DNA of 64,000 nt from an uncultured bacterium (GCA_903831805.1 CAIKZD010000017.1:77249-141248); one strand, 5' to 3'; counted from the stretch's first letter, positions 3,574 to 49,890 are shown. Notes: generated by a model not told the origin, from the letters alone. Made by a program: numbers and translations.

Positions 3574-3641
3574 TTTATTTTAAGTTTAGGACTTAAACAT
3601 TTTGCCGACTGCAAATGCGTAAGTCTTATAGCTAATTTTTT

Positions 3642-5147: not shown

Positions 5148-5168
5148 AAAAATAGCAATTAACAGCAT

Positions 5169-6731
5169 ATGACTATCCAAGAAATTATTGCAGAATTTAA
5201 GGAAAAAATAACTATCGTCAGTGAGAAAAGCGATTTGATAGAAGCTAAAGTTTCTCGGGACGACTTAGCTGAGGTGGCGACAGCTCTGTTTCATGATCAT
5301 AAATTACCATTGTCCCTGATGTTCGCCACGGACAACCGTACGGAAGACGGTAGTTTTGGAGTGCATACTGTTTTCAGTGTTCCCGCCGAAAAGAAGTGGC
5401 TGAAAATTTCGGTGGAAGTTCCGGCTTCTGATCCGCAATATCCCGCGCTCACCAGAACTATTATGGCGGCGCATTGGTATGAAAGATATTTGCGCGACAT
5501 GTTCGGCATCACGCCCGTTGGCCATCCTGATTTGCGCCGTTTGGTGCAGCATGAAAATATGCCAGAAGGCATTCATCCATTGTGCAAGGATTTCTTGTGG
5601 AACACTAAGTTGGAAAAAGCTAATGTGCCGTATCCGATGCATCATGTGACTGGTGACGGGATTTTTGAAATTCCGGTCGGACCGATCCATGCCGGTATCA
5701 TTGAGCCGGGCCATTTTCGTTTCAATGTGGCCGGCGAAAGAATTTTAACCTTGGAAGGCAAACTATTTTTTACGCATAAAGGCGTGGAAAAATTGTTGGA
5801 AGGCAAGAATATCATGGAGGCACTGCCGTTCATTGAAAGGATTTCTGGTGACGCAGCGGCTTCGCACGCTTTAGCGTACTGCGAAGCGGTGGAGAAAATC
5901 GCCGGTTGCGCGGTCCCGCGGCGGGCGCAAATGTTGCGCGCAATTCTCACCGAATGCGAAAGAATCACTATGCACATTCATGACCTGGCCAATATCGGTG
6001 GCATGGGCACGGGGTATAGTTTTATCGCAGCTAATGGTTTTCGTATCAAGGAAAGAATGATGCGTCTTTCGCAAGAGATTTGCGGCAATCGTTTTTGGCG
6101 CGGCCTGATTGTCCCGGGCGGGATAAAAAAAGATATCACTGATGAGGATTTGAAAAAAATATTAAACGTATCTCAAGCGGCCTGGAAAGAAATGGAAAAA
6201 ATTACCATCATCGCGCTCGACAGCGAAGGCTTTTTGGATCGCTTGCAATATACGGGCGAACTGCCAAAAGAGGCGGCCGAAGCCTTTGGGGCGGTCGGTC
6301 CGGCGGCGCGCGCGTCCAAGGTCAGTCGCGATGTGCGGCGCGATCATCCTTATGCCTCTTACGCCGAATTTCCGATCAAAGTCATCACTAAAAAAAGTCT
6401 GGATGTTTTTGCGCGTTATCGTATGCGGATTAAAGAGATTGAACAATCACTGGTTCTGATGCAAACTTTAGTGGAAAAAATGCCAGCTGGAGATATTATG
6501 GAAAAAGTGGCAGTGCGCGATGGCTTTGCACTTGGCGCCGTGGAATCATGGCGCGGAGAAATCATCTGTGCGCTGCAAATTAAAAACGGCGTGATTGAAA
6601 GATGTGTGCCGCGTGATCCCTCTTTTTGCAACTGGGCCCTCTTCGGCATTATGGGTCCCGGCAACATCGTGCCGGATTTCCCACTCATCAACAAAAGTTT
6701 GAATCTGTCCTATTCCGGGACGGACTTGTAA
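5169..6731 (+). CDS. NuoC-NuoD / HycE-like fused catalytic-module subunit lacking NiFe-binding cysteines
   Basis: N-terminal 30-kDa (NuoC)-like domain, then a 49-kDa/large-subunit-like domain (PVGPIHAGIIEPGHFRF). Expected L1 motif ERxCGxC reads ERISGDAAASH; C-terminal DPCxxC reads RDPSFCNW. Confidence 0.75.
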   Translation: MTIQEIIAEFKEKITIVSEKSDLIEAKVSRDDLAEVATALFHDHKLPLSLMFATDNRTEDGSFGVHTVFSVPAEKKWLKISVEVPASDPQYPALTRTIMAAHWYERYLRDMFGITPVGHPDLRRLVQHENMPEGIHPLCKDFLWNTKLEKANVPYPMHHVTGDGIFEIPVGPIHAGIIEPGHFRFNVAGERILTLEGKLFFTHKGVEKLLEGKNIMEALPFIERISGDAAASHALAYCEAVEKIAGCAVPRRAQMLRAILTECERITMHIHDLANIGGMGTGYSFIAANGFRIKERMMRLSQEICGNRFWRGLIVPGGIKKDITDEDLKKILNVSQAAWKEMEKITIIALDSEGFLDRLQYTGELPKEAAEAFGAVGPAARASKVSRDVRRDHPYASYAEFPIKVITKKSLDVFARYRMRIKEIEQSLVLMQTLVEKMPAGDIMEKVAVRDGFALGAVESWRGEIICALQIKNGVIERCVPRDPSFCNWALFGIMGPGNIVPDFPLINKSLNLSYSGTDL

Positions 6732-20787: not shown

Positions 20788-21768
20788 ATGAATAAAAAAT
20801 ATTTAACGGCCGGGTTTGTATTGGCGGTGGTCTTGGTCGCCGGATTTTTATTTTGGAAAAAAAATAATCAAGCGGCTGTTCTCAAAAATGGCTCTAAAAC
20901 TCAGTCGCTGGATATTTCCCAAGTTGTTCCATACACCGCGCCTAAAACGCCAGTCAAACATATCTTCATTGTGCTGGAAGAAAACAAGGATTATGCCGCA
21001 GTCGTGGGCAACACTAAAGATATGCCGTACTGGAATTCTTTGTCCGGTACATATGCGAGCGCGGACAACTATTATGCCAACACTCATCCTTCGGTGGGCA
21101 ATTATTTCATGTTGACGGCCGGGAAAATCATCACTAATAATGATGGCTATGCCAAGACGATTGACGATGACAATATAGTGCGGCAGCTCATGGCGGCCGG
21201 TAAAACCTGGAAAGAATATTCGGAAGATCTGCCAGCTGTTGGTTACACCGGTGGCAACGTCGGCAATTACAGTCAGCACCATAATCCATTGTCCTATTTT
21301 TCCGATGTGCGCAATAACCCACAGCAGGCGCAAAACCTGGTGCCTTTCTCTCAGTTGGCCACCGATATCACCAATAACACTTTGCCGGAATATGCTTTTA
21401 TCGTGCCCAATATGATTAATGATGCACACAGCTGTCCCGCTAGTGGACCGTGTAATGAACTCGCGGCGGCGGACAAATGGCTGAAAGAAAAAATTGATCC
21501 ACTCGTAAAAAGCCCGGAATTTAGCATGCCCGGCGGGGGACTGCTCATTCTCACTTTCGATGAAGCGGACGCATCAGACAAAACCAATGGCGGGGGACGC
21601 ATCCCCTGGGTCTTGGTAGGCCCGGATGTGAAGAAAGGTTATGTCAGTCATACTTTCTACCAACAAGAAAACACTTTACGTTTTATGGCAGAGGAAGCTG
21701 GTTTGACCACTTTTCCCGGGGCGGCAGCCAACGTAAGCAGTATGCAAGAATTTATGCAAGGCAATTAG
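20788..21768 (+). CDS. Phosphoesterase-family protein (AcpA / non-haemolytic phospholipase C-like), membrane-anchored
   Basis: N-terminal TM anchor; HIFIVLEENKDY and downstream conserved blocks typical of PF04185-type phosphoesterases. Confidence 0.65.
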   Translation: MNKKYLTAGFVLAVVLVAGFLFWKKNNQAAVLKNGSKTQSLDISQVVPYTAPKTPVKHIFIVLEENKDYAAVVGNTKDMPYWNSLSGTYASADNYYANTHPSVGNYFMLTAGKIITNNDGYAKTIDDDNIVRQLMAAGKTWKEYSEDLPAVGYTGGNVGNYSQHHNPLSYFSDVRNNPQQAQNLVPFSQLATDITNNTLPEYAFIVPNMINDAHSCPASGPCNELAAADKWLKEKIDPLVKSPEFSMPGGGLLILTFDEADASDKTNGGGRIPWVLVGPDVKKGYVSHTFYQQENTLRFMAEEAGLTTFPGAAANVSSMQEFMQGN

Positions 21769-21770
21769 AT

Positions 21771-23429
21771 TCAATTCACAAGTTTCGAAATAGACACTTG
21801 CCCGAAATTTTGGCGGCTATCAATTGGGTAGTCGTTTTCTTTTTCAGCTGAAGAATTTTTTACATTAGCCTCTATATAGAAAAGGGGTATATGCAGTCGG
21901 ATATTGTCTGGTCGTGGGGTTTGCAGCAAGGTAAAATTTTGTTCTTCAGCTAAATATTGTAAGGCTTTGGAAAAATTGGATAAATAGCGCGGGTCACCTG
22001 TCAGTTGCGCTTCTTTTTGATTGTCTGAGTTAGCTATAATGTATTGCAACATCGGTTCGATTTCTCCCAGCACGACAAAGTGCTCATTGCTGCGGTTTTT
22101 AGCGGTTAGCTCGTGGGCGTTGGTGGCGATAACTTGTAGATTGACCAAGGCCACCGCTAGAAAAAGCAGGACGATCAGGAAAGAATAAAAACGGGCAAAT
22201 TTTCGGATAGGATATTCAGCCAAAAAACCAAGGAAGAGGAAAGGTAGGAAAAAGATATGGATGAAATAGCGGAAATCCACAAAGCCGGCGTTGACAATCA
22301 TGGTCATTACGAAAAATGACAGGATTGAATAGAGCGCGATCAGATGCAAAAAATATTTTTTACTTTCATCTTTTTCACTGAAACATCGATGGATGAATAA
22401 GGCATAGCCAAGGATTGAAAATATGAGACCCAGGAGCAGGATTTTTTTAGAGTTGGGTAGTTCTTGGGTTCGGAGGCGCACTCCGGAAACGACAGTGTTA
22501 TTCCGGAAGAGAGCTAGGTAGGAAAGTGTACAGGCGTTGGCTCCGTCAGAAGAAGCCATGTAGGTGTTGGCTTCTATGTGACAATCCACTGCATTGACAA
22601 ACATGGTGCGCAGAGAATTTTTTCTATCTTGACCGACCGAGCCATGCGAAGTGAAGTTGTTCAGAAAAATTTTAGTGTTGGAAAAGTTAGCTTGAAACTC
22701 ACTGATGATTTGTGGCACGTTCAGAATAAAAGCGATACATAGCACAGCGGCCATTTTTTTCCACAAGGTTTTATTTTTGAGCCACAAATAAACAAAAGCA
22801 AAAAAAAGCGTGGCTGGCAAGAGCCCCATTAGGATGGCGTGCAATTGGAAGCCAATGCCCAGGGCTATGCCCAGAGAAAGTATCCACATCCAGTGTGTCT
22901 GTTCTTTTTTAACCAATAACTCATGTAGTGAAAGCAAGAACAAGAGGACAAAAAAGGGAATGATATTCGGATTCCACGCGAAGCGCGAATATTGGATGGA
23001 AAAGGAAGAAATGGCGTAAAGACCAGTTAGACTCAGGGATATATTTTGGTTGAAATAGCGTCTAACAAAAAGATAAAAAAGCGGCAGTGACAAAATTGAA
23101 AAGAAAAGGATTGGGTAAACTGTTGTGTCGGGCTGGGTGCCAAAAATCTGGGCACTCATAATTTGGAAATAATAAAAGATTGGGCCGAGGTGGAAAATTT
23201 TACTATGCGGCCCGCCCGAGCCGGTCATATCCGGGCCGAGGAGCGGCCAGGCGGTGTGTCCTTGCACGACATTACGCACCAATGTGGCTTCGGCCACTTG
23301 ATCATTTTCGAATTCCAACCAGGCATGAAAATGATAAGTGCGCAAAAAAATCCCGACCACGATTATTGCAATCAATAGCCATATCTTATAGCTGACTTTC
23401 TTCAGCTGCAAAAAGAAATCCTTGTTCAT
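21771..23429 (-). CDS. GT-C family glycosyltransferase (ArnT/PMT-like, 4-amino-arabinose/mannosyltransferase-like)
   Basis: 552 aa polytopic; N-terminal LRTYHFHAWLEFENDQ...NPNIIPFFVLLFLLSL pattern; paralog of 30996..32615. Confidence 0.7.
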   Translation of the reverse strand: MNKDFFLQLKKVSYKIWLLIAIIVVGIFLRTYHFHAWLEFENDQVAEATLVRNVVQGHTAWPLLGPDMTGSGGPHSKIFHLGPIFYYFQIMSAQIFGTQPDTTVYPILFFSILSLPLFYLFVRRYFNQNISLSLTGLYAISSFSIQYSRFAWNPNIIPFFVLLFLLSLHELLVKKEQTHWMWILSLGIALGIGFQLHAILMGLLPATLFFAFVYLWLKNKTLWKKMAAVLCIAFILNVPQIISEFQANFSNTKIFLNNFTSHGSVGQDRKNSLRTMFVNAVDCHIEANTYMASSDGANACTLSYLALFRNNTVVSGVRLRTQELPNSKKILLLGLIFSILGYALFIHRCFSEKDESKKYFLHLIALYSILSFFVMTMIVNAGFVDFRYFIHIFFLPFLFLGFLAEYPIRKFARFYSFLIVLLFLAVALVNLQVIATNAHELTAKNRSNEHFVVLGEIEPMLQYIIANSDNQKEAQLTGDPRYLSNFSKALQYLAEEQNFTLLQTPRPDNIRLHIPLFYIEANVKNSSAEKENDYPIDSRQNFGQVSISKLVN

Positions 23430-23462
23430 TGTGATTTTAGGGTGGGGTGAGTTTAAATTGTT

Positions 23463-25421
23463 TTAAAATCGACTGATGAGCCAGTCCCAAAAACGCACGA
23501 AGGAGTTGGCGGTTGGATGCACCGATAAAATAAAGCCGTTCCGCGGGGCTTGAGAAAAATCGAAATCATTTTTAAGATCGCCCAAGATTGGGACATTTTC
23601 CCGTACTGTCGGTCGCGGATCGGGGCGGCCATCAGTTGCGGGATCGAGCCGGGCGCCCTGCATAAAATCGTCTTCTATAAATTTTAAATAGGCGTCAAAA
23701 CTCAGTGTTTGATGATCAATGTAACCTTTTTTAGCATACGGGCTAATGACCAGACTCGGAACTCGTAGTCCATAGCCATTTTGATCAACCACTGGCGGCG
23801 TGACATGATCATAAAATCCGCCCCAGTCATCCCAGGCCAGGATAATAGCAGAGTCTTTCCATTCCGGACTTTGCATGACAGCGTTTATTATGCTAGTGGT
23901 GTAAGCTTGGCCATCGCTAATAAGGGCTGGAGAGTGTTCGCTATTAGTCTGATTGGGGACAATCCAAGACACGCTGGGCAGCGTGTCGTTTTTAGCGGCG
24001 GTAATAAATTTATTGATATCTTGAATGTTTTGTAATTGGTTATTTTGTTTCACCGTTTCAAAATCAACCAAGGGATTCCAATAGCTGGAGATGTGGGGAT
24101 TTTGCGGCAAGGGCGCACAAGTCATGGCGTCATCGTCGCAATCCGGTTGCGCACCTTGGTCTAAATAATAGCCCCAACTGACATTATATTTATGCAATAA
24201 ATAAGTGATATCTGTCCAAGCATAGTCCGGGTTGTTTTTGGGTAATTTCGGACTTTGCAATTTATTTTGACAGCTCATTGGGTCACTCGATTTACACTTG
24301 GCTGACCAAGATGAAACCATATAGAGGTGAGCGATCAAGCTCCAGGAGGCGTTCGGTTCGAACATATGGTCTTGTAAGACAAAATTTTTGGCGTAAGTCC
24401 AATAATTGGGAATTTCCGCGTCAGTGTGATAACCCACTACATCCGGTAAACCTTTATTAGTCGCGCAGCTTGGATCAGGATTATTTTTACACGCTTGCTT
24501 AATGGCTGCTTCTTCTTGGACGATAAACCCATCCATCTTGCCACTATTGATGTCACCGACCGCGTCGCTAGCTTGGTGTGGTCCGCCGGAATTTTGATCT
24601 TGCACGTTATGGAAGGGCTTTATGCAAGTCTTAGTGTTAGGGTCGGGAATGCAAACGGTTGGTTGGTCATTCTTCATCGGAATACCATCCGCGCCAGGGA
24701 ACGTGCCGAAATAGGAATCGAAAGAGCGATTTTCCTGCATGATAAAGATGACGTGTTTGATCTTATGGATGTCGTCGTCCGTGGAGGTTTGTAGGGCGAC
24801 GTTGCCCGTAGTGTCCAGATTGTAAAGCTTATTCCAAGGCATCTGTTTGTTCCCAATTATGAAAACAACTAGACCGGCTAAAAAAATAAAACCAATAATT
24901 AATATGAACCAAGAACGCTTGCTTAACTTAGGAAAATGCAAGCGATCTATTTTTGCGATTAAGTGTGGAAAAATTAACTTCCAAGCGAAATAGGCTACGG
25001 CCGCGGAAAGTATCAAACTAGTAGAAATATCCACCCAGTGATGTACGCCGGCTAGTACTCGAGCAGCGCCGACTATGGCGGCGGCCACAAAGAAGAGTGA
25101 GCCAGCTTTTTTTCGGAAACAAAAAATGGCGGCGGCCACTGCGCCTAAAATCAGCGTATGGTCCGAAGGGAAGCCATTATCGGCGTCGTGCGGGATAAGT
25201 GGGACAAAATGGCTAGCCACGAACGGACGAGGATCATAATAAGCCAAAGACAATAGTTTGGCTGCGGCGTAGGTCAGTGGCAGCGCTAGCAGGGCAAAAA
25301 ATAAAAAGCGCCGGCGTTCGACTGCGGGCAATCGGAAAAGAAACCACAGGGCGGCGGCCAAAACCAAAAAGATGAAATCTTTAGCCAGGAAAATTATAAG
25401 CAGGTTGAATAAATTAGACAT
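23463..25421 (-). CDS. PAP2 phosphatase domain fused to phosphoesterase (phospholipase C/acid phosphatase) domain
   Basis: N-terminus: [11 protein letters not shown]...[11 protein letters not shown]2 motifs in a 6-TM region; C-terminus: [23 protein letters not shown] phosphoesterase signature. Confidence 0.75.
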
Positions 25422-25447
25422 GAGGAGTAGTACTTTTGTTAGTTAAA

Positions 25448-26617
25448 TTATTTCTTATACAGATAGAAGAAATCTTTGGCATAGCCGTTCAAATATTCTT
25501 TGGAGCCGTCAGTCAATTCTTTGGTCAAAGTCGTAGAAGTGTATTTTCCTCCGCCGGCCGGCTCGAAAATGTTGAACCGCACCCAGATGGGATTGATGTC
25601 CAACTGGATGGCATTAACCGCGCCGGCGGTTTTTAGAGCAGCGGCCAGGGTGTCTGGGGTGAGATTGTTGCCGACGGCGAAAATCAAATTGCCTTTGGCG
25701 GTGAGGCCGATGCCAGAACGCCAAGTATAGATGCCCACCGTGCCAGCGGCCAAGCGACCCCAAAGCAGTTTATTTTTTGGGTCAGACACGCTGATATTTC
25801 CGTCTTGGATAAGCATTGGGCAATTTTGGCGAATAAACAGCATGTCGCTGCCAAAAGACTGGCCGGAATAATCCACAATTTTCAAGCTCCCGTCTTTATA
25901 ACCAACCAGCGTGCCTAGATCATTTTTGAGAGGCAGGTAAGTGGTGCTGCCGACAATCATCCCGTATTGACCATCTTTATATTGGAAGCCGCCATCAAAA
26001 GCGGAAATAAGATTGCCACTAGCTAAAATATCTTTGGGAATCACGCCCGGTCCGGGTTTTCCCACTGGCCCGCCGGGTTGCTTTGTGCCGGCTACGCTGC
26101 CCATTTGCATGACACTCATATCCATCTGTACTAAAGTCACGCTGGCATAGGACCTGTCCGGATCAGGGCGGACAAAGGTATAAGCCATCACCTCTTGGCC
26201 GGGAAAAAGACTGAGGGGGTGGTCGCGCCATACGCCTTCACCGTCCAGCGGTGGGAAAGAGTTAATAAGACTAATCGGATTCAAATCTAAATTTCCGCCG
26301 CTGATGTTGGATGCGCCGGCATCTTCGAATCGGGGCGGTTTATCGGCGTGTAAGTTGTTAGTCAAACGTTGCAATTGATCGGAAGTATTGAAAAAAATCT
26401 TTTCAAGATAAACGACCCGGTTATCGCCCAATAGTGGTCGCAGAACATTATCCGTAAAAACGGCCGCCGCCCCCAGATTGAGTTTCAAGAAGAATAGAGC
26501 GCCTAGCAAAAGCAAACACCCGGCCAAAATTATTTTTATGACCCAGTGTATTTTTCGGCGTTTCTTTTTTCCAGAATTTTCAACCGGTGTGGCCGGTGTT
26601 TGAGAAGTTTCTTCCAT
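25448..26617 (-). CDS. Membrane-anchored phosphodiester glycosidase-like protein (DUF2233-like)
   Basis: N-terminal TM; C-terminal NAIQLDINPIWVRF-type block resembles the phosphodiester glycosidase family; assignment tentative. Confidence 0.45.
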   Translation of the reverse strand: MEETSQTPATPVENSGKKKRRKIHWVIKIILAGCLLLLGALFFLKLNLGAAAVFTDNVLRPLLGDNRVVYLEKIFFNTSDQLQRLTNNLHADKPPRFEDAGASNISGGNLDLNPISLINSFPPLDGEGVWRDHPLSLFPGQEVMAYTFVRPDPDRSYASVTLVQMDMSVMQMGSVAGTKQPGGPVGKPGPGVIPKDILASGNLISAFDGGFQYKDGQYGMIVGSTTYLPLKNDLGTLVGYKDGSLKIVDYSGQSFGSDMLFIRQNCPMLIQDGNISVSDPKNKLLWGRLAAGTVGIYTWRSGIGLTAKGNLIFAVGNNLTPDTLAAALKTAGAVNAIQLDINPIWVRFNIFEPAGGGKYTSTTLTKELTDGSKEYLNGYAKDFFYLYKK

Positions 26618-26649
26618 AGATAGGCTATTTTTGCACTAAGGATTAAAAT

Positions 26650-28752
26650 TTAGGATTTTTTCCAATATTGCCCCAACCAGGTGATGCCGGCTGGCAAATG
26701 CTTTATCCAGAAAGGCCAATTATGCTCCCCGGGAAAAGGTATTAAATCGGCTTGGAAATCCTTGTTCTTCAATAGGGTGAGTACGTTATTGCCATCGGCA
26801 AGATCAGCTGAGCGCTTATCCGTTATCATTATCACCCTAGTAGTATTATCTTTCAATGTTGGAATGTAGTCAATCGGAGAATTTTCTTGGACTATTTGTT
26901 TGGAAGTTATAAAGGATTTAGTGAGGGGTGTGATGGGAAGTTCGCCGTAGCCGGAAAGGGAGATGGCATAGCCGAAAACATCCTGATGTTTCAAAGCGAT
27001 ATTCAAAGCGCCGAAACCGCCTTCAGATAGGCCGCCAATCGCTCTATGACCAGCATCTGGAATGGTTGGAAAATTATTATCTACGTAATTAACTACAGTC
27101 TTAGCGATAAAATCTTCATTAGGACCTAGCGCGGAATTGATATATTGCGTATCCACGTTATTACTGCCGTTACCATCCGGGAAGACCGCAATGAATGGTG
27201 CAATGCTCCCATCAGCAATCCTTTGATCCAAAGTTTGTTGTGCGCGTCCATGATACAGCCAGTCAGAGGCTTCTCCCGGCGAGCCATGCAAAAGATAGAG
27301 GACGGGATAGTGTTGGCTTTTATCGTTCGGATCGTACCCCTTGGGCAGATAGAGGAGGACTTCACGTGATTTGCCCGGCGCCATTTGTAAAATCGTCTTC
27401 ACGACCAAAGAGCCTTGTTGCAGCCGGGTTTGACTGGCTGTGTCGGCCGCCAATGCATTTGCTTTTAGTAGATCCGAATCATATTGTTTGCCGAAGGGAT
27501 TGTAATTTGGGAAAAAGCGGATCGTGTCGATCAGTCTGTCCGGCCAAAAAGGAAAGATTCGGATATCGTCCGTAAATTGGTCAGGATTCACTTTATACCA
27601 AATGGTCGCTGCAAAAAAAATACTCACCAGAAAAATGGTTATCCCGAGCATGATTTTGGCCATGCCGCCCAAGATTTTTCTGGACATTGTTTTAGGGCGA
27701 TGGACATTGTCTTTACAGCTAGTCCCAAAAAAGCCAGAAACTCTGCCTGATTTTTCTTGGGAAATCAAGCGATGATATAGGCCAAGACTGACCAAAAACG
27801 GGACAAGATAGTAGATGATCCTGAAAAGGACAGAGGCTGCCACAGCGACAGGCAGCGGGGCGCCCAGGATGTGATAGATAGCTACTTCGGACAGGTCTTG
27901 CACGCCCAGGCCGCCAGGAATGAAAGAGACCAAGCCGGCGATAACTGACAGGAAAAAACCAGCCATGAGCGCCATGAACGAAAATGTAAAGCCGAAAGCC
28001 ATGAAGCAAAATTCGAAAATCAAAAGACACAGCAGCCAATCAGCTAGGAAAGTGGCCAACATCCGGACAAAATCTCCTGGTCGTTTCTTGCTCAAAGCAA
28101 GACCGTTGTCCAAGGCTTGGCTGGTGTTTTTCAAGGATACTTGGATATCAATTTTGATGAGGGCGTGGACTAGCCAAGCTATGCTACTAAAAAGTTTCTG
28201 GCGGATTTTTTTCGAGAACAAGAAAAAAGTGAGGGCCAGGAAGAAAACGGCAAAAATCATGAGGGCCGCTTGGAACGCCGGCGCAAAACGCGCGGCAATC
28301 ATCCCGGTCAAAAGGGCATAGGCGACCGAGAAGGCGGAAAAGAACAGAATGACTAAAAAATTCAAATACGAGAAAAAAAGTGAAGCAGCCATGATGTGGG
28401 AGCCTTTATCTTTTTCGTTCTTGAGTAGCATCACGCGTAAGGAATAGCCGACGGTGCCGCCGAGGGTCAGTAGGTTGTTGAAAGCGATGGTGACTACGCC
28501 GATGATGAACAGTTTTTTCCTTTCTGTCGACAGGCCAAAAAGGATGTTGAGCAGGGTGTAAGCTTCGGCCGCTAAGACTAAGGAAACGCCCGTTGCCAAA
28601 AAGGCGGCGATGGCAAAAAACCAATTGGCTCGCGCCAGAACGGACAGGGATTTATTTTTTTCTAAGAATAAAACTAAGCCGAAAGTCAACAGTAAAAGAC
28701 CAAAAATTATTTTGGGCCAGGGCAGGCGCTTAATGGGAGAGGAATTTTTCAT
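26650..28752 (-). CDS. MprF-type flippase (LPG-synthase TM / UPF0104) domain fused to alpha/beta-hydrolase esterase domain
   Basis: N-terminal ~330 aa polytopic (GG..G..L..NLLTLGGTVGYSLRV); C-terminal HYPVLYLLHGSPGEASDW...GGLSEGGFGALNIALKH putative-esterase family motifs (GxSxG). Confidence 0.7.
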   Translation of the reverse strand: MKNSSPIKRLPWPKIIFGLLLLTFGLVLFLEKNKSLSVLARANWFFAIAAFLATGVSLVLAAEAYTLLNILFGLSTERKKLFIIGVVTIAFNNLLTLGGTVGYSLRVMLLKNEKDKGSHIMAASLFFSYLNFLVILFFSAFSVAYALLTGMIAARFAPAFQAALMIFAVFFLALTFFLFSKKIRQKLFSSIAWLVHALIKIDIQVSLKNTSQALDNGLALSKKRPGDFVRMLATFLADWLLCLLIFEFCFMAFGFTFSFMALMAGFFLSVIAGLVSFIPGGLGVQDLSEVAIYHILGAPLPVAVAASVLFRIIYYLVPFLVSLGLYHRLISQEKSGRVSGFFGTSCKDNVHRPKTMSRKILGGMAKIMLGITIFLVSIFFAATIWYKVNPDQFTDDIRIFPFWPDRLIDTIRFFPNYNPFGKQYDSDLLKANALAADTASQTRLQQGSLVVKTILQMAPGKSREVLLYLPKGYDPNDKSQHYPVLYLLHGSPGEASDWLYHGRAQQTLDQRIADGSIAPFIAVFPDGNGSNNVDTQYINSALGPNEDFIAKTVVNYVDNNFPTIPDAGHRAIGGLSEGGFGALNIALKHQDVFGYAISLSGYGELPITPLTKSFITSKQIVQENSPIDYIPTLKDNTTRVIMITDKRSADLADGNNVLTLLKNKDFQADLIPFPGEHNWPFWIKHLPAGITWLGQYWKKS

Positions 28753-30443
28753 TTGTTATAATTTTTGGAGCGCGTCAACTTAGATAGGGTGAAAGTGGAA
28801 GTAATCAGATTGACCGGACTGCCAGCATAGACTAAAAAGCGATCTTCCCAGATTGGTTGGAATTTCTTCTTGTAATTATATATCCCTTCAAAGGAAAATA
28901 AAATAGATGCATTTTTATAAATTTCTTGTAACGCCTTTTCCTTGAGGCTGTCGGACGGAAAAGTATTTTCTTTAGAAATCGGAGACAGCCCCAAGTCGAA
29001 GGTTTTATAACCTTTGGCAAAAAAATAAAAAAACATTTTGATGAAAAGAAAATCCATCGTGCCGTTCAAGGCGTCCAGCTTATGGCGCATCAGATCGATG
29101 GTCGCTTCGCCAGTCTTCCAAGACGGGATCTCGTTGGCGAAAGCAATAATTTCGCCCTGTGCATCTTCCACCACGAAAATGCGACACTCACTCAGATATT
29201 CTTCATCAAAATAGCCGACGGTAAAATTGCGTTCGTGCCGCCCGGATTTTTTCAGCCATTCATCCGACAGCATTTTCAATTTTTCCAACATTCCCGATGA
29301 ATGGGGTGGTTCTAGGCAAATGAAGCTATAGCCTCGCTTTTCAAATTTGCGCACGATCCGTGAGAAGTCCTTGCTCGGGCCTAATTCTGTTACAAACTTC
29401 GCGAGATCGATGAAAGCTTCCTGGCCGATGCGCAGATAATTGAGCTTGGCCACTTTGCAGATGGCGCAAAACTCGGCGGTAACGCAATAAAAAGCTGGCC
29501 GCCAACCATAATCTCTAGTGTAGTGGATAAATTCTTCCACTGTGGCTAGCGTTTCACTGGTTGGCCCGATCGGGTCGCCCAGGGCCATCGCGACGCCATT
29601 GGCTAATTCAAAGGAGATGAAGCTGGTTTTGTTTTTATTGAAAAAATAATGTTTACTCGGCCATAATTTGAAGTAGTCCAATGATGAGCGGCCGAACTTA
29701 TCTAAAATCTCCGCGGCCGCTTGGCGCTCTAGGCCGTAACGTTGCAACTCATAGATCGGAAGAAAAACGCTGTAGGCCGCTAAGCTGAGCGCCGAGATGC
29801 CCAAGAAACGGAGCAGCTCCAAAAAATGAGTGGCGTAATGGCTGTGCGGCACTAGGTCGCTATTACCTAGTAATAGATATTCTCGCAAGGTGCGCAGGAG
29901 CGCTTCGCTCAAATGAAAATTGATGCCAAATTCTCGTTGGTCCAAAAACCAAAAACCAGCGGTGCCGCATAGCACTGCTAGAAGAAAACTGCCGGCAGCC
30001 AATCTCACTCCTTGAAAAATATTTTCTCTGGCATAGCGCACGGTGAAATATTGTCGATATTCAAAAAGAAGGACCAGAGTCAGAAGCGCGGTCATAAAAT
30101 AAACCGGATGAGCATGCAGGATATCCACTGAGGATATGATTATCAACATGCCTATAATTGCCCACCAAGCCACAATTTTTCTTCGATGAATGTGATAGGA
30201 AAGGTAGATTAAGGTAAAACCGAGTACGACTGTCAAAAGACTGCTCCGATGGAAAAGCCCGAATGGAGTTACCGTCAATAGCAAGGTAGAAAAATTATTG
30301 GAATGAAAAAAGAATTCTTCAAGAAGGGCCAATAGCCCGTTGAAAAAAGTGAGAACAGCAATCAAGTCGACCTGCCAAGGCGTGGAAAAATAGACACACA
30401 GGTTTTTGTGGAAAAAACGATAGAGCTTGGAGAGTTTACCCAT
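28749..30443 (-). CDS. mprF: Aminoacyl-phosphatidylglycerol synthase (MprF synthase domain, DUF2156) with TM anchor
   Basis: N-terminal TM helices, then a C-terminal domain matching the lysyl/alanyl-PG synthase catalytic region; overlaps the downstream flippase gene by 4 nt. Confidence 0.7.
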   Translation of the reverse strand: MGKLSKLYRFFHKNLCVYFSTPWQVDLIAVLTFFNGLLALLEEFFFHSNNFSTLLLTVTPFGLFHRSSLLTVVLGFTLIYLSYHIHRRKIVAWWAIIGMLIIISSVDILHAHPVYFMTALLTLVLLFEYRQYFTVRYARENIFQGVRLAAGSFLLAVLCGTAGFWFLDQREFGINFHLSEALLRTLREYLLLGNSDLVPHSHYATHFLELLRFLGISALSLAAYSVFLPIYELQRYGLERQAAAEILDKFGRSSLDYFKLWPSKHYFFNKNKTSFISFELANGVAMALGDPIGPTSETLATVEEFIHYTRDYGWRPAFYCVTAEFCAICKVAKLNYLRIGQEAFIDLAKFVTELGPSKDFSRIVRKFEKRGYSFICLEPPHSSGMLEKLKMLSDEWLKKSGRHERNFTVGYFDEEYLSECRIFVVEDAQGEIIAFANEIPSWKTGEATIDLMRHKLDALNGTMDFLFIKMFFYFFAKGYKTFDLGLSPISKENTFPSDSLKEKALQEIYKNASILFSFEGIYNYKKKFQPIWEDRFLVYAGSPVNLITSTFTLSKLTRSKNYNK

Positions 30444-30978
30444 GAATTATTTTCTTAAGTTTGTTTTTTATCCGGTGGACAGCCACGCGTAGAGATGTTT
30501 CTGATTTGTGAGTTGTCTTGACCATCTCTTTATAACTCAAGCCCAAGACAAAGCGTAGCGTAAAAAGTTGTTGTTCCTTGGGGTGGAGCTTTTTAACCAG
30601 GCGATAAATTTTTTCTACCATTATTTTTTCACTTAAGTTTTCATTTTCATCAGTGAGCGTCTGAATAGTTTCCAAATCGAAGAAAGAAATGGTTTTCTTC
30701 TCTCGATAATAATCAATCAGGCGATTTTTAGCGATCCGCCAGACCCAAGCGGAAAAATCTCCGGCGCTTTCGTTAAAGTGCTGAATATTTTTTAAGATAC
30801 GCAGAAAAACATCCTGCGTCAAATCTTCCGCTACATCCCTATTCATAACTTTTTTGATAAAATGGCCGAAGAAAAGCGGATTGAAATAGCCAAACATGGC
30901 TGTGGCAGCGTGTGGATTGCCTTTTTGGATGGAAGCTGCCAGCGTATTCAGATAACTTTTTTTTAAAAATTTTGGCAT
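30436..30978 (-). CDS. ECF-subfamily RNA polymerase sigma factor
   Basis: Region 2 (DLTQDVFLRILKNIQHF...AWVWRIAKNRLIDYYR) and region 4 HTH (LSYKEMVKTTHKSETSLRVAVHRIKNKL); 180 aa. Confidence 0.85.
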   Translation of the reverse strand: MPKFLKKSYLNTLAASIQKGNPHAATAMFGYFNPLFFGHFIKKVMNRDVAEDLTQDVFLRILKNIQHFNESAGDFSAWVWRIAKNRLIDYYREKKTISFFDLETIQTLTDENENLSEKIMVEKIYRLVKKLHPKEQQLFTLRFVLGLSYKEMVKTTHKSETSLRVAVHRIKNKLKKIIHG

Positions 30979-30995
30979 ATTATAGTAATATTCCC

Positions 30996-32615
30996 TTAGT
31001 TGTTTAATTTTAAAATAGCCATATTTTTATACAACTTATAATTAAATACAGAACGTCCCAGATGAGTTTCACTCTGAAGCTGTTTGTCCGAGGACGGTTT
31101 CTCAAGGAAGATAACTGGGACATTAGGATTAATATTCTTCTCTTTATATGCTCGGATGATTTCCACGCCAGCCTTGGCCGCTAAATAATAAAAAGGTTTA
31201 TAGTAGCGGGAGAAATAAGCGCTGTCACCATCCAAATAAATCTTTCGAGGCGGTTTAATGCCGCTAATAATATAACTTGTCATATCGTACGCTTCTCTTA
31301 GCGATACTGAACGCGTGTCGCTGTAGGCCATCTTAGTGTAGGCTTGGTAGTTTTGTAAGAGCGTTTGAAATTGTAACAGTATTATCAAGAATGTGGCTAT
31401 TCCCAGGGAAATATATTTAAGTTTACCCTGGTTTTTTTTCCAAAGAAATTCTAGCCATAAGCCGGCAAAAACAAATGGCAAGAAAAAAAGAACAATGTAG
31501 TAGCGGATGGAAGCTTGGTCGATGATTGGCACCATCACTAAAAAGGTTACAGTGGCATAGGCGCAGATTAACATTAAAAAATCTTTTCGTTGTGTGTTGG
31601 TTTCTTGTTTCCAAAAATAAACTAGCAAGCCATAGCCGCCCAAGGTAAAGATTAGACTGCAAAGAATCAGGAGAATCGCGTCTAGCTTGAAAGGTTTATT
31701 TTTCTGAAAAAAACTGTTAACAATATTCCCCGTGTCGCATTTGTCGCCAGTGCCCAAGGAAGTCAGGATGTGTAAATTAGCGGTTGATTGGCAAAAAATT
31801 GCCGCTTCTAAATGTGTCATCAGCTTGCCGCCGCCGGCATTCTGCGAAAAGGCGGCTTTAAATTTATTTGCATTCGAATTGCCATGCGTAAAGTTGTAAA
31901 TAAATTGGCTTGTGTTGGCCAGCAAGACGAAAAATAAAATCACCACACCTTTTTTCAAGAGGATCAGTACTGGCATTTTTTTAACGGCGGCCAAGTAAAG
32001 AAAAGTCAGGACCGTCAGAATCGGCAAAGTAAAAATCAAAATGGCGTGCAATTGAATGCCCACACCGACGGCGATGCCGACTAGAACCGCACTCCACCAT
32101 TTCTCATCGCCGCTTTCCAATAGGGATAAAATGCCCAGAAGAAAAAGTAGGACGAAAAAAGGGATGGAATTAGGATTGAATGCGAAGCGAGCATAAGTAA
32201 TCATGAAATAGGAAAGGCTCAGCAAAAAAGTCAGGAGCAAAGAAAGTTCCTGGGTAAAATATTTTTTGGCGAATAGATACAAAAGTGGAATAGTCAGAAT
32301 GGAAAAGAACAAATCAGGATAGGCTAATTGCCAAGGCGAGGCTCCAAAAATTTTCGCCGACAGGATTTCTAAATGATAGAACCATGGGCCGAGATTGAAA
32401 TGGGTGTTGCCAGCTTCCGGTCCGAGCATGATCCAAGAGCTTTTGCCAGCCAAAACATCGTCCACTAGGGCAGCGTCTCGGGCCTGGTCAGGATTGAAAG
32501 TCAGCCAGTCGCGGAAATGATAGGTGCGCAAAAAGACGCCGAAAAAAATGATCGCCAACAGCATCCATAGATGATATGGGCCGGTTCTAATTTTTTTGAA
32601 AAGAGTATTCCTCAT
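30996..32615 (-). CDS. GT-C family glycosyltransferase (ArnT/PMT-like), paralog
   Basis: 539 aa; same N-terminal architecture as 21771..23429 (LRTYHFRDWLTFNPDQ...NPNSIPFFVLLFLLGI). Confidence 0.7.
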   Translation of the reverse strand: MRNTLFKKIRTGPYHLWMLLAIIFFGVFLRTYHFRDWLTFNPDQARDAALVDDVLAGKSSWIMLGPEAGNTHFNLGPWFYHLEILSAKIFGASPWQLAYPDLFFSILTIPLLYLFAKKYFTQELSLLLTFLLSLSYFMITYARFAFNPNSIPFFVLLFLLGILSLLESGDEKWWSAVLVGIAVGVGIQLHAILIFTLPILTVLTFLYLAAVKKMPVLILLKKGVVILFFVLLANTSQFIYNFTHGNSNANKFKAAFSQNAGGGKLMTHLEAAIFCQSTANLHILTSLGTGDKCDTGNIVNSFFQKNKPFKLDAILLILCSLIFTLGGYGLLVYFWKQETNTQRKDFLMLICAYATVTFLVMVPIIDQASIRYYIVLFFLPFVFAGLWLEFLWKKNQGKLKYISLGIATFLIILLQFQTLLQNYQAYTKMAYSDTRSVSLREAYDMTSYIISGIKPPRKIYLDGDSAYFSRYYKPFYYLAAKAGVEIIRAYKEKNINPNVPVIFLEKPSSDKQLQSETHLGRSVFNYKLYKNMAILKLNN

Positions 32616-32699
32616 TTCTAAATAATCTTATTATTGCGCCGCTAGACAATGCTAGAGTTAATAATAATTTTTATAAATGAAGAAAAAATGAAGGCAAAA

Positions 32700-33722
32700 T
32701 TAGTTGTGGAGTTGGGGAAGAAGGACGATAACTTCCGTACCCACGCCTGGGGTGCTGGTTATTTCCAGTTTCCCGTGGTGTTGAGTGACAATCTTTTTGA
32801 CAATCGATAGTCCCAGGCCAGCGCCGCTATACTCTGCGGAGCGAGCCTGATCGGCTTTATAGAAGGCTTCGGTGATGTGTGGCAGATCTTTTTGAGCGAT
32901 GCCGATGCCAGTATCTTTGATGGACAGTTTCAATTGACTACTACTTGTCTGGACGGAGACATGGATCTTGCCGCCTGCGGGTGTGTAGTCGATGGCATTT
33001 TTCAAAATATTTAAAAACAGCCTTTCGACATCCAGTCGGTTGCCGAGCATGTTGCCGGGTGTGTTTCGAACAAACGATAAGGTGAGATTTTTTCTTTTAG
33101 CCAAGCTTTGGAAAGTGGTGGTCATTTTTTCCACCAGTGTGTCTAGCGAGATTAGCTCAAGGGGTTGTTCTGATGTGTAGTTATGCCTGGAGAGAAAAAG
33201 CAGTTGATCCACCATGGCTGACATCCGATCGATCTCTTCTAAATTACTAAGCATGACTTGGCGGAACTCTTCATTGGTGACGGTTTTCTTTTTGAGGCTC
33301 ACTTCACAGTCTGTTTTCATAATCGCCAGGGGCGTACGCAAATCATGCGAGGCGTCGGCTGTAAAACGTTTTTGTTTTTCCAAAACTTCTTCGATTGGGC
33401 GCAAATTTTTGCCCGCTAGAAAAAACCCTAGTCCACTGAAAAAAAAGAGGATGATCACGTTACCAATAATTAGCACTTCTTTCTCTTGCTCGTCAGCTTC
33501 TTCAATGGCCACTTGTCTGAGGGCATGGCCCCTAAACTTGTCATTGATGGTTTCTTTGATATTTTTGGCCAGACTGATGTACAGACCGAAACTAAAAACA
33601 ATCATGATGAGGGCGATAATGATTAAGTAGAAAGTGGCCAGCTTGAGGCGCGCCCACAGGAAAAGATTATTCCTTGAACCGGTAACCCACGCCGTGAATT
33701 GTTTCAAATAATTTTTTGCCAT
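32700..33722 (-). CDS. Sensor histidine kinase
   Basis: Two TM, H-box RFTADASHDLRTPL, HATPase_c N/G boxes (LKNAIDYTPAGG, GAGLGLSIVK). Confidence 0.9.
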   Translation of the reverse strand: MAKNYLKQFTAWVTGSRNNLFLWARLKLATFYLIIIALIMIVFSFGLYISLAKNIKETINDKFRGHALRQVAIEEADEQEKEVLIIGNVIILFFFSGLGFFLAGKNLRPIEEVLEKQKRFTADASHDLRTPLAIMKTDCEVSLKKKTVTNEEFRQVMLSNLEEIDRMSAMVDQLLFLSRHNYTSEQPLELISLDTLVEKMTTTFQSLAKRKNLTLSFVRNTPGNMLGNRLDVERLFLNILKNAIDYTPAGGKIHVSVQTSSSQLKLSIKDTGIGIAQKDLPHITEAFYKADQARSAEYSGAGLGLSIVKKIVTQHHGKLEITSTPGVGTEVIVLLPQLHN

Positions 33723-34341
33723 CGTTTTTTTGGAATTTATTCCTTAAATTTTTCACATGGACATCCACAATGTTGCTGAAAGAGTCAAAAGAAAAGTCCC
33801 ATAAGCTACTGATGATCTGTTCGCGGGTCAGTACTTGTCCGGGATGGCGCATAAAATATTCCAGCAGGCTGTACTCTTTGAGAGTGAGGGAGATTTCTGT
33901 ATCAAGATAAAAAACTTTTCTGGTGCTGCTGTTTAGGTTGATGTGGTGTCTTGTGAGTTCCATTGGTATAACGACAGCCGGTCTTCTTAATAAGGCCCGA
34001 ATGCGCGCCAGTAATTCTTCGAGCGAAAACGGCTTAATCATATAATCATCCGCGCCGGCGTCCAGCCCGATGATTTTGTCTTCGGTCGTGTCGCGGGCGG
34101 TCAGCATCAGGATCGGCAAGGTAATGCCAAGTTGGCGAATATTTTTACAAACCTCCAGTCCGCTGATTTTGGGGAGCATGACGTCTAAAATAGCCAAGTC
34201 ATAATCTTCGCCGCGGCTTCGCAATCTGGCTTGCCCGGTTTCCCCATCTAGCAAGATATCTACCGCAAACCCTTCGTTTTCCAAGCCATTTTTCAGGCTT
34301 TTCGCTAATTTTTGATTGTCTTCAATGAGGAGTATTTTCAT
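33667..34341 (-). CDS. OmpR-family response regulator
   Basis: Receiver domain (MKILLIEDN...LAILDVMLP...K) plus winged-helix trans_reg_C; overlaps the kinase gene by 56 nt. Confidence 0.9.
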   Translation of the reverse strand: MKILLIEDNQKLAKSLKNGLENEGFAVDILLDGETGQARLRSRGEDYDLAILDVMLPKISGLEVCKNIRQLGITLPILMLTARDTTEDKIIGLDAGADDYMIKPFSLEELLARIRALLRRPAVVIPMELTRHHINLNSSTRKVFYLDTEISLTLKEYSLLEYFMRHPGQVLTREQIISSLWDFSFDSFSNIVDVHVKNLRNKFQKNDGKKLFETIHGVGYRFKE

Positions 34342-48018: not shown

Positions 48019-49890
48019 ATGACCGCGAACGAACTCAGACAATCATATTTGGAATTTTTCAAAAGCAAAGGACATGCCATCATTCCGAGTGCGCCGGTGG
48101 TGCCGGAAAATGATCCAACCACCCTTTTCATAACGGCCGGGATGCATCCTTTGGTGCCGTACCTGATGGGTGAAAATCATCCACAAGGCACGCGCTTGGC
48201 CAATGCGCAAAAAAGTATCCGCACCATCGACATCGATGAAGTGGGCGACCGCACCCATCACACTTTTTTCGAGATGCTCGGGAATTGGTCGCTGGGCGAT
48301 TATTTCAAGAAAGAAGCCATCTCCTGGAGCTGGGAATTTTTGACTTCGCCGGATTGGCTGGCTCTCGACAAAAATCGCTTGGCTTGTTCAGTGTTCGAAG
48401 GAGACGCAGACGCGCCGTTCGACGCGGAAGCATTCGAAATTTGGAAAGATTTAGGCATGCCGGTTGCACGCATTGCTAAACTCCCGAAGAAAAATAATTG
48501 GTGGGGACCGGCCGGCGTGACCGGGCCGTGCGGACCGGACAGTGAAATGTTCTATTGGATTGGTGACCCCAAGGCCGTACCGGACAGCTTCAATGATGAT
48601 AATGACCTGTGGGTGGAAATTTGGAATGATGTTTTTATGCAATTCAATAAGACTGAGGACGGCCGGTATGAAAAATTGGCGCAGCAGAATGTCGACACCG
48701 GCATGGGACTGATGCGGGTTTTGACGGCCATCAATGGCTTGGACGACAATTATCGCACGGAACTTTTCTGGCCGCTCATCCAAGAAATTGAGAAATTATC
48801 CGGCTTAGAATACGGTGAAAAATCTGATGAGGAATATATCGCCGAAGATCAAAAATGCTGGGTGGATACGCGAAAATCTTTTCGTATCATTGCTGATCAC
48901 ATTAAAGCCGCCGTGTTCATTATGGCGGACGGCGTAGAGCCGGGAAACACTGAACGTGGCTATGTACTTAGGCGCCTCATTCGGCGCGCTATCCGCCAGG
49001 GACACATCCTGGGTATTAAAGAAAATTTCACCACTAAAATTGCGAAAGTGGTGCAGGAAATTTATGGCGCGGTCTATCCGGAAATTTTGGATGACAAATT
49101 AATAGATGAATTAGATAAAGAAGAGGAGAAATTCAGGAAGACATTGGAAAATGGATTGAAAGAATTTGAAAAATTTATAAGTAATCCGGAGGGTAATTAT
49201 ATAACTAGAAAAGTTGGTGATGAGATACAAAAAGCAGATTGGTATGCAAATGATGATACAGCGGATATGGTATTTAATTTGTATCAGTCGTACGGATTTC
49301 CCTTAGAGGTAGTTTTTGAAGAATTAAAAAATAGAAAAATTAATATTGATGAAAATAAATTAAAAGATAAATTTGATAAGAGATATAAAAAACATCAAGA
49401 ACTTTCCCGCACCGCTTCAGCCGGCATGTTCAAAGGCGGGTTGTCCGATACTAAAGAAGAAACGACTGCCTTGCACACAGCGGCGCATCTGATGCTTGCT
49501 GGACTACGGAAAGTTTTGGGCAGTCACGTACATCAAAAAGGGTCGAACATCAACGGTGAAAGATTACGTTTTGATTTTTCCCATGCGGAAAAAATGACTG
49601 ACGAGCAGAAGAAAGCCGTAGAAGAATATGTCAATACAGCTATTGCCGCCAAAATTCCGGTAGAACTGAATGAAATGACCTTGGACGAAGCGCGCGAGTC
49701 TGGAGCAGAAGGGGCGTTTGAAAACAAATATGGCGAGGTGGTGAAAGTCTACAAAATTGAAGGTTTCTCCAATGAGATTTGCGGCGGCCCGCACGTGACC
49801 AACACCGGCGACATCGTCGGCACTTTCAAGATTAAAAAAGAAGAAAGCTCGAGCGCGGGCGTGCGGAGGATCAAGGCAATTTTAGAATAA
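48019..49890 (+). CDS. alaS: Alanyl-tRNA synthetase (short form lacking C-Ala domain)
   Basis: N-terminal FFKSKGHAIIPSAPVVPENDPTTLFITAGMHP... catalytic core; editing domain HTAAHLMLAGL...H..; 623 aa. Confidence 0.92.
   Translation: MTANELRQSYLEFFKSKGHAIIPSAPVVPENDPTTLFITAGMHPLVPYLMGENHPQGTRLANAQKSIRTIDIDEVGDRTHHTFFEMLGNWSLGDYFKKEAISWSWEFLTSPDWLALDKNRLACSVFEGDADAPFDAEAFEIWKDLGMPVARIAKLPKKNNWWGPAGVTGPCGPDSEMFYWIGDPKAVPDSFNDDNDLWVEIWNDVFMQFNKTEDGRYEKLAQQNVDTGMGLMRVLTAINGLDDNYRTELFWPLIQEIEKLSGLEYGEKSDEEYIAEDQKCWVDTRKSFRIIADHIKAAVFIMADGVEPGNTERGYVLRRLIRRAIRQGHILGIKENFTTKIAKVVQEIYGAVYPEILDDKLIDELDKEEEKFRKTLENGLKEFEKFISNPEGNYITRKVGDEIQKADWYANDDTADMVFNLYQSYGFPLEVVFEELKNRKINIDENKLKDKFDKRYKKHQELSRTASAGMFKGGLSDTKEETTALHTAAHLMLAGLRKVLGSHVHQKGSNINGERLRFDFSHAEKMTDEQKKAVEEYVNTAIAAKIPVELNEMTLDEARESGAEGAFENKYGEVVKVYKIEGFSNEICGGPHVTNTGDIVGTFKIKKEESSSAGVRRIKAILE

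Follow-up and report, generated by a model that had tools for sequence, protein, structure and literature searches.

Two adjacent minus-strand genes in a 64,000-nucleotide stretch of DNA from an uncultured freshwater bacterium (GCA_903831805.1 CAIKZD010000017.1:77249-141248, hereafter the window) encode the parts of the aminoacyl-lipid synthase and flippase MprF on two polypeptides, the second of which runs on, in one frame, from the flippase into an alpha/beta-hydrolase domain of the 'putative esterase' family. We consider it rather probable that the pair forms a three-activity lipid-aminoacylation module in two translationally coupled genes, in which the esterase would deacylate the aminoacyl-lipid once it has been flipped. 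All three modules of MprF, as represented by Staphylococcus aureus MprF, Rhizobium tropici LpiA and Pseudomonas aeruginosa MprF (PaMprF), can be aligned in the window proteins, which differ from them in that the modules are shared between two chains, stand in reversed order (the synthase part first) and are accompanied by an extra transmembrane (TM) helix and an external esterase. A preliminary description of this DNA had placed two genes here with a 4-nt overlap, and both the positions and the overlap were recovered (aa, amino acids; ORF, open reading frame):

28749..30443, minus strand: synthase gene (564 aa), an aminoacyl-lipid synthase without flippase subdomain 1; ORF with PF09924
26650..28752, minus strand: flippase-esterase fusion gene (700 aa); ORF with both Pfam domains in one frame
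28749..28752, minus strand: ATGA overlap of the synthase stop codon with the flippase-esterase start codon, read in the sequence as …aat tat aac aaA TGA aaa…

The product of the first gene divides into a membrane part and a catalytic part:

29712..30413, minus strand: membrane part of the synthase (aa 11-244), corresponding to MprF subdomain 2 (TM9-14); from hydrophobic segments, our own hidden Markov model (HMM) 'synTM' and the PaMprF alignment
28827..29708, minus strand: cytoplasmic catalytic domain LPG_synthase_C/DUF2156 (aa 246-539); from Pfam and PDB matches

The aminoacyl-phosphatidylglycerol (aminoacyl-PG) synthase domain that had been proposed for this gene was confirmed by Pfam, as PF09924 (LPG_synthase_C/DUF2156, a tandem GNAT domain) matched residues 246-539 with E=2e-63 over 296 of the 298 model positions, far above the gathering score. 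The synTM model matched residues 11-244, with the hydrophobic segments lying within residues 23-231, and the protein aligned to positions 315-836 of the 841 in NF033480 (bifunctional MprF) and to PaMprF from residue ~353-366 to 869. Judged from these two alignments and the hydrophobic segments, at least six TM helices directly precede the catalytic domain, a region that MprF requires for synthesis in vivo. The full-length NF033480 cut-off (600 bits) was reached by neither protein, the synthase gene scoring 350 and the flippase gene 101 bits. The best solved relative of the synthase was the lysyl-PG synthase (LysPGS) of Bacillus licheniformis, 4V36 (E=1e-53), with 186 bits versus 121 bits for the alanyl-PG synthase (AlaPGS) 4V34; this ranking is a hint as to the amino acid and does not determine it.

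The flippase-type TM domain, which the preliminary description had seen as encoded apart from the synthase, occupies the first half of the second gene and is followed by a linker and a further helix:

27790..28707, minus strand: LPG_synthase_TM domain (aa 16-321), corresponding to MprF flippase subdomain 1 (TM1-8); from PF03706, TIGR00374 and NF033480
27679..27774, minus strand: cytoplasmic linker after TM8 (aa 327-358), with seven Lys and Arg versus two Asp and Glu
27589..27684, minus strand: ninth TM helix (aa 357-388, hydrophobic core ~366-388); from hydropathy and a predicted helix
27424..27588, minus strand: juxtamembrane segment (aa 389-443) with the lineage-conserved motif FPFWPDRLIDTIRFFPNYNPF; from the alignment

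Residues 16-321 matched PF03706 (E=7e-22, full model length, far above the gathering score), TIGR00374 (1e-21) and NF033480 (5.5e-29). A phmmer search of the PDB with the whole fusion gave esterases only, and from the flippase half MprF was reached only with a profile; this profile, made from 27 flippase homologues, matched MprF chains only, at PaMprF residues 47-204 and 242-334, that is, in subdomain 1. Across the 27 homologues P279, G281, G283, Q285 and R311 were invariant. The stretch PGGLGVQD (aa 279-286), which has the conserved half-helix loop pattern PGGxGxx(D/E), corresponds to the TM7a-7b loop of MprF, and Arg311, within LFRIIYY, to the TM8 arginine. Variation at these two sites is nil or nearly nil in the family, and the loop and the arginine gate the lipid path in the structure from R. 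tropici (PMC8131360). With the subdomains of MprF defined as TM1-8 (subdomain 1) and TM9-14 (subdomain 2) (PMC8131360), the alignments put the gene boundary between TM8 and TM9, at the junction of the two. The halves of S. aureus MprF, when cut after TM8, work together in trans (PMC2774229; PMC8131360), and the boundary in the window lies at the same place as in that engineered pair (MprF(-8) with the N-terminal domain in trans; Ernst et al. 2009, PMC2774229). Unlike the engineered split, the one in the window is natural, lies between translationally coupled genes and comes with an added hydrolase.

Hydropathy analysis revealed eight hydrophobic segments within residues 10-326 of the fusion, then a 32-residue loop with seven Lys/Arg and two Asp/Glu, and then a ninth hydrophobic stretch (core ~366-388, hydropathy peak 2.35) ahead of a 312-residue tail. 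The end of TM8 is cytoplasmic in MprF because six further helices precede the cytoplasmic catalytic domain, and therefore the ninth helix should place the esterase outside. The eight segments, the Lys/Arg-rich loop and the ninth helix thus predict that the esterase domain faces outward, the periplasm-facing topology that the preliminary description had supposed. AlphaFold2 modelling of the 700-aa fusion gave a mean predicted local distance difference test score (pLDDT) of 83.7, with two confident domains (~10-335 and ~440-700, mostly >90) joined by helix 357-388 and with pLDDT <50 at 339-356 and 392-433. The stand-alone flippases of relatives end at the position equivalent to aa ~332-335, and in alignments the counterpart of the ninth helix in separately encoded esterases (P0010, L010, L012 and L014) is their N-terminal signal-anchor. 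The motif FPFWPDRLIDTIRFFPNYNPF (aa ~401-425, window 27490..27550, minus strand) stands between this anchor and the esterase fold; it is kept in the esterases of the lineage, absent from those of Rubrobacterales and Nostoc, and modelled with low confidence.

The C-terminal part of the fusion contains the following features:

26653..27423, minus strand: predicted extracytoplasmic alpha/beta-hydrolase domain, 'Putative esterase' PF00756, CE1-like (aa 444-700); from Pfam, PDB and Foldseek
27025..27027, minus strand: codon of Ser576, the predicted nucleophile, in GGLSEGG; from the 5VOL/7XRT alignment
26722..26724, minus strand: codon of His677 (PGEHNW), the predicted catalytic histidine; from alignment with GGHDW of 5VOL
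26803..26820, minus strand: loop after strand 639-645 with Asp645 and Asp650, the candidate catalytic acids; from the HMMER alignment to 5VOL

The fusion of a putative-esterase domain to the flippase, also anticipated earlier, is supported by a PF00756 match at residues 459-690 (E=5e-30, 105 bits versus a cut-off of 22) and by the motifs LLHGSPG (aa 487-493) and GGLSEGG (aa 573-579). The nearest solved sequences are the CE1 feruloyl esterases 7XRT, 5VOL and XynZ (E about 1e-21 to 1e-19), and the nearest fold found by Foldseek is that of 5VOL (TM-score 0.84, normalised to the target), followed by esterase D/FrmB-type enzymes. In the alignment with 5VOL and 7XRT, Ser576 falls in their nucleophile elbow, GLSMGG, at the position that is mutated in 7XRV (S150A), and it is invariant in all synthase-linked esterases aligned; together with His677 it is present in 12 of the 12 synthase-linked esterases of the smaller alignment. 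In the wider set, P0031, with its divergent C-terminus, is the one full-length sequence that lacks His677. Asp650 falls on the canonical DxGxxD aspartate in the HMMER alignment to 5VOL; with Asp645 as a second candidate, its assignment as the catalytic acid is tentative. The domain also keeps its HG motif and its entire fold (pLDDT about 90). The CE1 feruloyl esterases of Bacteroides (5VOL, 7XRT) and Clostridium thermocellum (XynZ, XynY) share the nucleophile elbow and histidine of the window esterase, but they are secreted, carbohydrate-active enzymes, often joined to carbohydrate-binding modules or xylanases, and none is flippase-tethered or linked to DUF2156 genes.

Two other assignments of the domain were rejected. 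As an enterochelin/siderophore esterase (Fes, IroD/E) the domain scored 20.1 bits with NF007758 versus a cut-off of 222, and feruloyl esterases matched it far better, so that the clustering with enterochelin esterases that had been considered at the outset was not seen and the fold is CE1-like. A hydrolase of the AcvB/VirJ/PA0919 type was not supported either, with no PF06057 match at E<=0.01 and a BLASTP comparison with the VirJ part of P0032, a flippase-VirJ protein described below, giving E>2.

A chimeric join in the window was suspected from JGI contig L001, which (at 6940-7007, compared with window 27390..27460) matches the window up to codon 443 and then diverges. The break coincides with the start of the esterase fold, the contig ends 36 nt later, and a stop codon lies two codons past the break. 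The foreign 29-mer at the end of this contig had no other occurrence in the window or in 175 other loci. At least 18 contigs (25 index blocks) encode precisely this 700-aa product, and its gene has the same neighbours in every case; the contigs derive from several lake-metagenome samples assembled in ENA and from individual runs assembled in Logan. As an identical ORF recurs in both sources, a chimeric join is excluded: the flippase-esterase fusion is real and not an assembly artefact. We treated the divergence of L001 as a contig-end artefact or a rare (truncated) allele.

The fusion is rare, and the split that accompanies it is not. A word-indexed homologue search with the fusion protein returned 9 matches only, and 1.84 billion cluster representatives were therefore searched exhaustively with phmmer. 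None of the best 150 of the 13,000 phmmer matches contained both PF03706 and PF00756; at the top were P0010, an anchored esterase without a flippase (351 aa, 48% identity over residues 365-699), and P0011, a flippase without an esterase (338 aa, 48%). The 90% cluster of the window protein consists of itself and fragments, and in present data the fusion is limited to this organism. The 120 best synthase homologues, without exception, are proteins of ~540-590 aa with PF09924 only. A scan of GTDB species genomes, for which an alignment served as query (a single synthase sequence found nothing), yielded 80 loci, and in about 18 of them, the closest ones, a separate flippase gene directly follows the synthase. 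These belong to unclassified 'bacterium' metagenome-assembled genomes (MAGs), Chloroflexota, Rubrobacterales, Dehalococcoidia and an Eisenbacteria MAG. The division into synthase and flippase genes is therefore common in this branch of the family, and of the architecture that the preliminary description had called unusual, the fusion alone deserves the word. Permuted single-chain MprF proteins, in which subdomain 2 and DUF2156 are followed by a C-terminal PF03706 domain and the canonical order is thus reversed, were observed in two cyanobacterial MAGs (L081:5965-8604, Pfam-confirmed, and L088:5845-8526).

Esterases of the same family accompany these synthases as separate genes. In each of the four closest relatives of the synthase (44-52% identity), a PF00756 esterase, the synthase and the flippase follow one another in this order on one strand, and one of the four has a second, convergent esterase. 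Compared with window residues 360-700, the upstream esterases are 50-51% identical in three cases and 45% in the fourth (L008); since this range of 45-51% lies beside 44-52% for the synthases, esterase and synthase diverged roughly in step. Relative to these loci, the esterase of the window has left the upstream slot and now forms the 3' end of the flippase gene. Esterases of PF00756 further adjoin flippase-less synthases in MAGs of Rubrobacterales (Actinomycetota), where one locus (L017) has synthase, flippase and esterase as three genes in the order of the window, and in three Nostoc loci (L089, L091 and L093, at ~3.6-5.9 kb in the locus) two tandem PF00756 genes lie directly upstream of a flippase-less synthase. 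Two of the latter (L091 and L093) have, further upstream, a divergent gene with a weak flippase-like match. Wherever such an esterase occurred within 6 kb in the 80 genome loci, it immediately adjoined the synthase/flippase pair. Among metagenome relatives of the esterase, 6 of the 8 best-ranked are synthase-adjacent (L095, L096, L098, L101, L102 and L103), as are 13 of 80 overall, a count in which many contigs are too short to tell. In one protein (P0066, 862 aa; L176:6001-8589) the subdomain-2 TM helices, LPG_synthase_C, a TM helix (564-582) and PF00756 form a single chain. Together, these results show that a PF00756 esterase subfamily is conservedly linked to these synthases and belongs to the module. 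Some synthase-adjacent esterases are longer, at ~495-520 aa (L095:6311-7792, L098:6260-7789, L101:6264-7754, L097 and L099), and have in common a conserved N-terminal domain without Pfam match, ~220 aa long and containing about five TM helices.

A second hydrolase family is found at the same place. The 800-aa protein P0032 (L175:4008-8050, JGI 3300036760) consists of PF03706, a short hydrophobic segment and an AcvB/VirJ domain, and its gene follows a 544-aa synthase gene, in the same layout as in the window (synthase, then flippase-TM-hydrolase). The flippase parts of P0032 and the window protein are 35% identical over 335 aa with one gap, whereas the hydrolase parts are without similarity; therefore two hydrolase families occupy the same position. 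AcvB/VirJ is a characterised family of experimentally established Lys-PG hydrolases, and AcvB binds its MprF partner LpiA physically in vitro (PMC13197417). Among the 120 best VirJ matches the flippase-VirJ architecture was seen only in P0032 and one 80%-identical cluster (P0285). Read from the sequences, two alpha/beta-hydrolase families have been fused independently, and rarely, at the same place of one flippase scaffold. Two proteins of ~1250 aa from Thermoanaerobaculia MAGs (P0288 and P0289), annotated as AcvB/VirJ hydrolases, also carry a PEMT (PF04191) domain.

These arrangements extend a known association. The preliminary description had named free-standing aminoacyl-PG hydrolases as partners of MprF in some bacteria, and the literature bears this out: three types, AhyD (Enterococcus), VirJ and PesT, structurally unrelated to one another, are encoded with aminoacyl-PG synthase (aaPGS) genes (PMC6103681), and dedicated alpha/beta-hydrolases beside aminoacyl-lipid synthases are general, in fungi as well as in bacteria (PMC6103681, PMC7334510). 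In the mprF/lpiA-acvB operons (atvA, PA0920-PA0919), as in the window, the synthase/flippase is co-encoded with an extracytoplasmic alpha/beta-hydrolase; the resemblance is functional only, as the window hydrolase belongs to PF00756 and not to PF06057, and similarity between the two is not detectable. The alaDAGS-pesT operon of Corynebacterium, like the window and its relatives, combines a 'putative esterase' with an aaPGS homologue. PesT of C. glutamicum, which we take to be a PF00756 member, is a separate protein whereas the window esterase is fused, and we liken the two by description and operon context, not by sequence. By description, the window esterase falls in the 'putative esterase' class that is called PesT in the literature, the members of which may be hydrolases or transferases (PMC6103681). 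The pairing of synthase and hydrolase is thus already known, the fusion will not surprise a specialist, and the picture of MprF biology is unchanged. What is new is the covalent joining of flippase and esterase, the conserved operon of an uncultured lineage in which esterase, synthase and flippase are three genes, and the convergent VirJ counterpart.

We suggest the following scheme for the module. The product of the first gene, a membrane-anchored, tRNA-dependent synthase (subdomain 2 and DUF2156), would aminoacylate PG or a related lipid at the cytoplasmic face. The first 335 residues of the second gene product (subdomain 1), together with subdomain 2 of the synthase, would form the flippase or scramblase that delivers the lipid to the outer leaflet. 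Via the positively charged cytoplasmic loop and the ninth helix the chain would then continue on the outside as a CE1-type serine esterase, which would cleave the aminoacyl ester once the lipid has reached the outer leaflet and so regenerate PG. The level of aminoacyl-lipid, and hence surface charge, would be set by a cycle of synthase, flippase and hydrolase, with flippase and hydrolase present at 1:1, side by side. The topology, the lipid substrate, the identity of the amino acid and hydrolysis as the direction of the reaction are elements that we infer. A membrane-charge homeostat of this kind had been put forward in the preliminary description; the esterase-synthase-flippase operons and the flippase-AcvB/VirJ fusion strengthen the proposal, but its hydrolytic step is inferred and not shown.

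Several points weigh against this scheme. The nearest solved structures are carbohydrate (feruloyl) esterases and not lipid esterases. The position of Asp650 is not an aspartate in the nearest relatives, several of which are acidic instead at the residue aligned with Asp645. Confidence in the model is low for the linker and the juxtamembrane segment, and the position of the active site relative to the flippase exit is not derivable from it. A co-transcribed 1:1 pair of synthase and hydrolase is a futile cycle unless it is regulated post-translationally. Finally, PesT of Corynebacterium, the one aaPGS-linked 'putative esterase' that has been studied, behaved unlike a simple hydrolase, its co-expression being needed for formation of alanyl-PG (Ala-PG) (PMC6103681).

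The last of these points leads to the alternative that best survives, although we regard it as unlikely: the esterase could be an aminoacyl transferase, in which Ser576 takes the aminoacyl group from the flipped lipid and passes it to a second lipid or to a wall glycopolymer. The PDB matches of the domain include mycobacterial MPT51/antigen-85-type proteins and Corynebacterium PS1, which are acyl transferases, and PF00756 also contains antigen-85-type acyl transferases; the closest solved relatives act on carbohydrate esters. The neighbouring genes encode enzymes of envelope glycosylation and phosphoester chemistry (two PMT_2, one NAGPA-like and a PAP2-phosphoesterase), but they are not conserved with the module in relatives. 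For C. glutamicum, where PesT is required for Ala-PG, transfer from alanyl-diacylglycerol (Ala-DAG) to PG is one of two proposals (PMC6103681). Against a transferase, the same position in locus L175 is held by AcvB/VirJ, a demonstrated hydrolase, and no acceptor-binding feature was found in the domain. An extension of this idea, in which transacylation is the purpose of the pathway and aminoacyl-PG would be a carrier lipid for tRNA-dependent envelope aminoacylation, handed over directly by the flippase, appears to us improbable; if true, it would be an L-amino-acid counterpart of Dlt-type D-alanylation and would settle the role of PesT-type esterases.

No more probable than that extension is an esterase that acts on an unrelated substrate, such as a wall polysaccharide or another lipid ester, and uses the flippase as a mere membrane anchor. 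The best sequence and fold matches, CE1 feruloyl and acetyl-xylan esterases and esterase D/FrmB, would fit such a function, and PF00756 is fused to other membrane domains elsewhere (OpgC_C in P0005, and the unassigned 5-TM domain in L095 and L098). However, an esterase of this subfamily that occurs within 6 kb of a synthase always adjoins the synthase/flippase pair, lineages differ in which half of the system is fused to it, and its divergence tracks that of the synthase. A recent fusion accident in one species, with an inactive or decaying esterase part or a protein processed into two polypeptides, would account for the restriction of the architecture to one 90%-identity cluster, the L001 ORF that ends two codons past residue 443 and the variable canonical acid position in the clade, but is very improbable given an ORF intact and identical on at least 18 contigs, the preservation of Ser576, His677, the HG motif and the whole fold (pLDDT about 90), and the lack of a second esterase of this family in the 64-kb window that could serve as a replacement.

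For the proposed synthase-flippase-hydrolase module, the fusion of the flippase half to two unrelated hydrolase families provides independent support from genomes for a hydrolase that acts on the outer face, at the flippase, and the first contextual (Rosetta-stone) argument on where and on what PesT-type esterases act. In a compact construct of the two genes, simple mutations (S576A, truncation at residue 335) would suffice to tell synthesis, flipping and removal apart.

The two genes belong to a run of nine tightly spaced, same-strand, envelope-related genes (window 21771..34341, minus strand), in the order response regulator, histidine kinase, PMT_2 glycosyltransferase, extracytoplasmic function (ECF) sigma factor, synthase, flippase-esterase, NAGPA-like phosphodiester glycosidase, PAP2-phosphoesterase and second PMT_2. 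The gene directly upstream of the synthase is the following:

30436..30978, minus strand: ECF-type sigma factor gene, the end of which overlaps the synthase start by 8 nt

It occupies the slot that the esterase gene holds in relatives, and no anti-sigma gene was recognised. The transcription unit was not informed by a promoter and terminator scan, which scored no better than shuffles, or by an Rfam scan, the sole match of which was a tRNA. No Shine-Dalgarno-like sequence was seen before Met353, where an internal ribosome-binding site was looked for. Two genes downstream of the flippase-esterase gene, a 652-aa protein (23463..25421, minus strand) combines a PAP2 lipid-phosphatase membrane domain (aa 41-151) with a Phosphoesterase domain, PF04185 (aa 221-586), of phospholipase C or acid phosphatase-like type, and a second PF04185 gene lies at window 20788..21768 (plus strand). 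Elsewhere in the window, a complex-I/Mrp-like membrane module (11..6731, plus strand) has unusual fusions, with one ORF combining 30-kDa and 49-kDa (NiFe-hydrogenase large-subunit-like) domains and another combining NADHdh (NuoH-like) with a 4L-like C-terminus, alongside two antiporter-like subunits. An alanyl-tRNA synthetase of only 623 aa (48019..49890, plus strand) comprises the catalytic core and tRNA_SAD without the long C-terminal extension.

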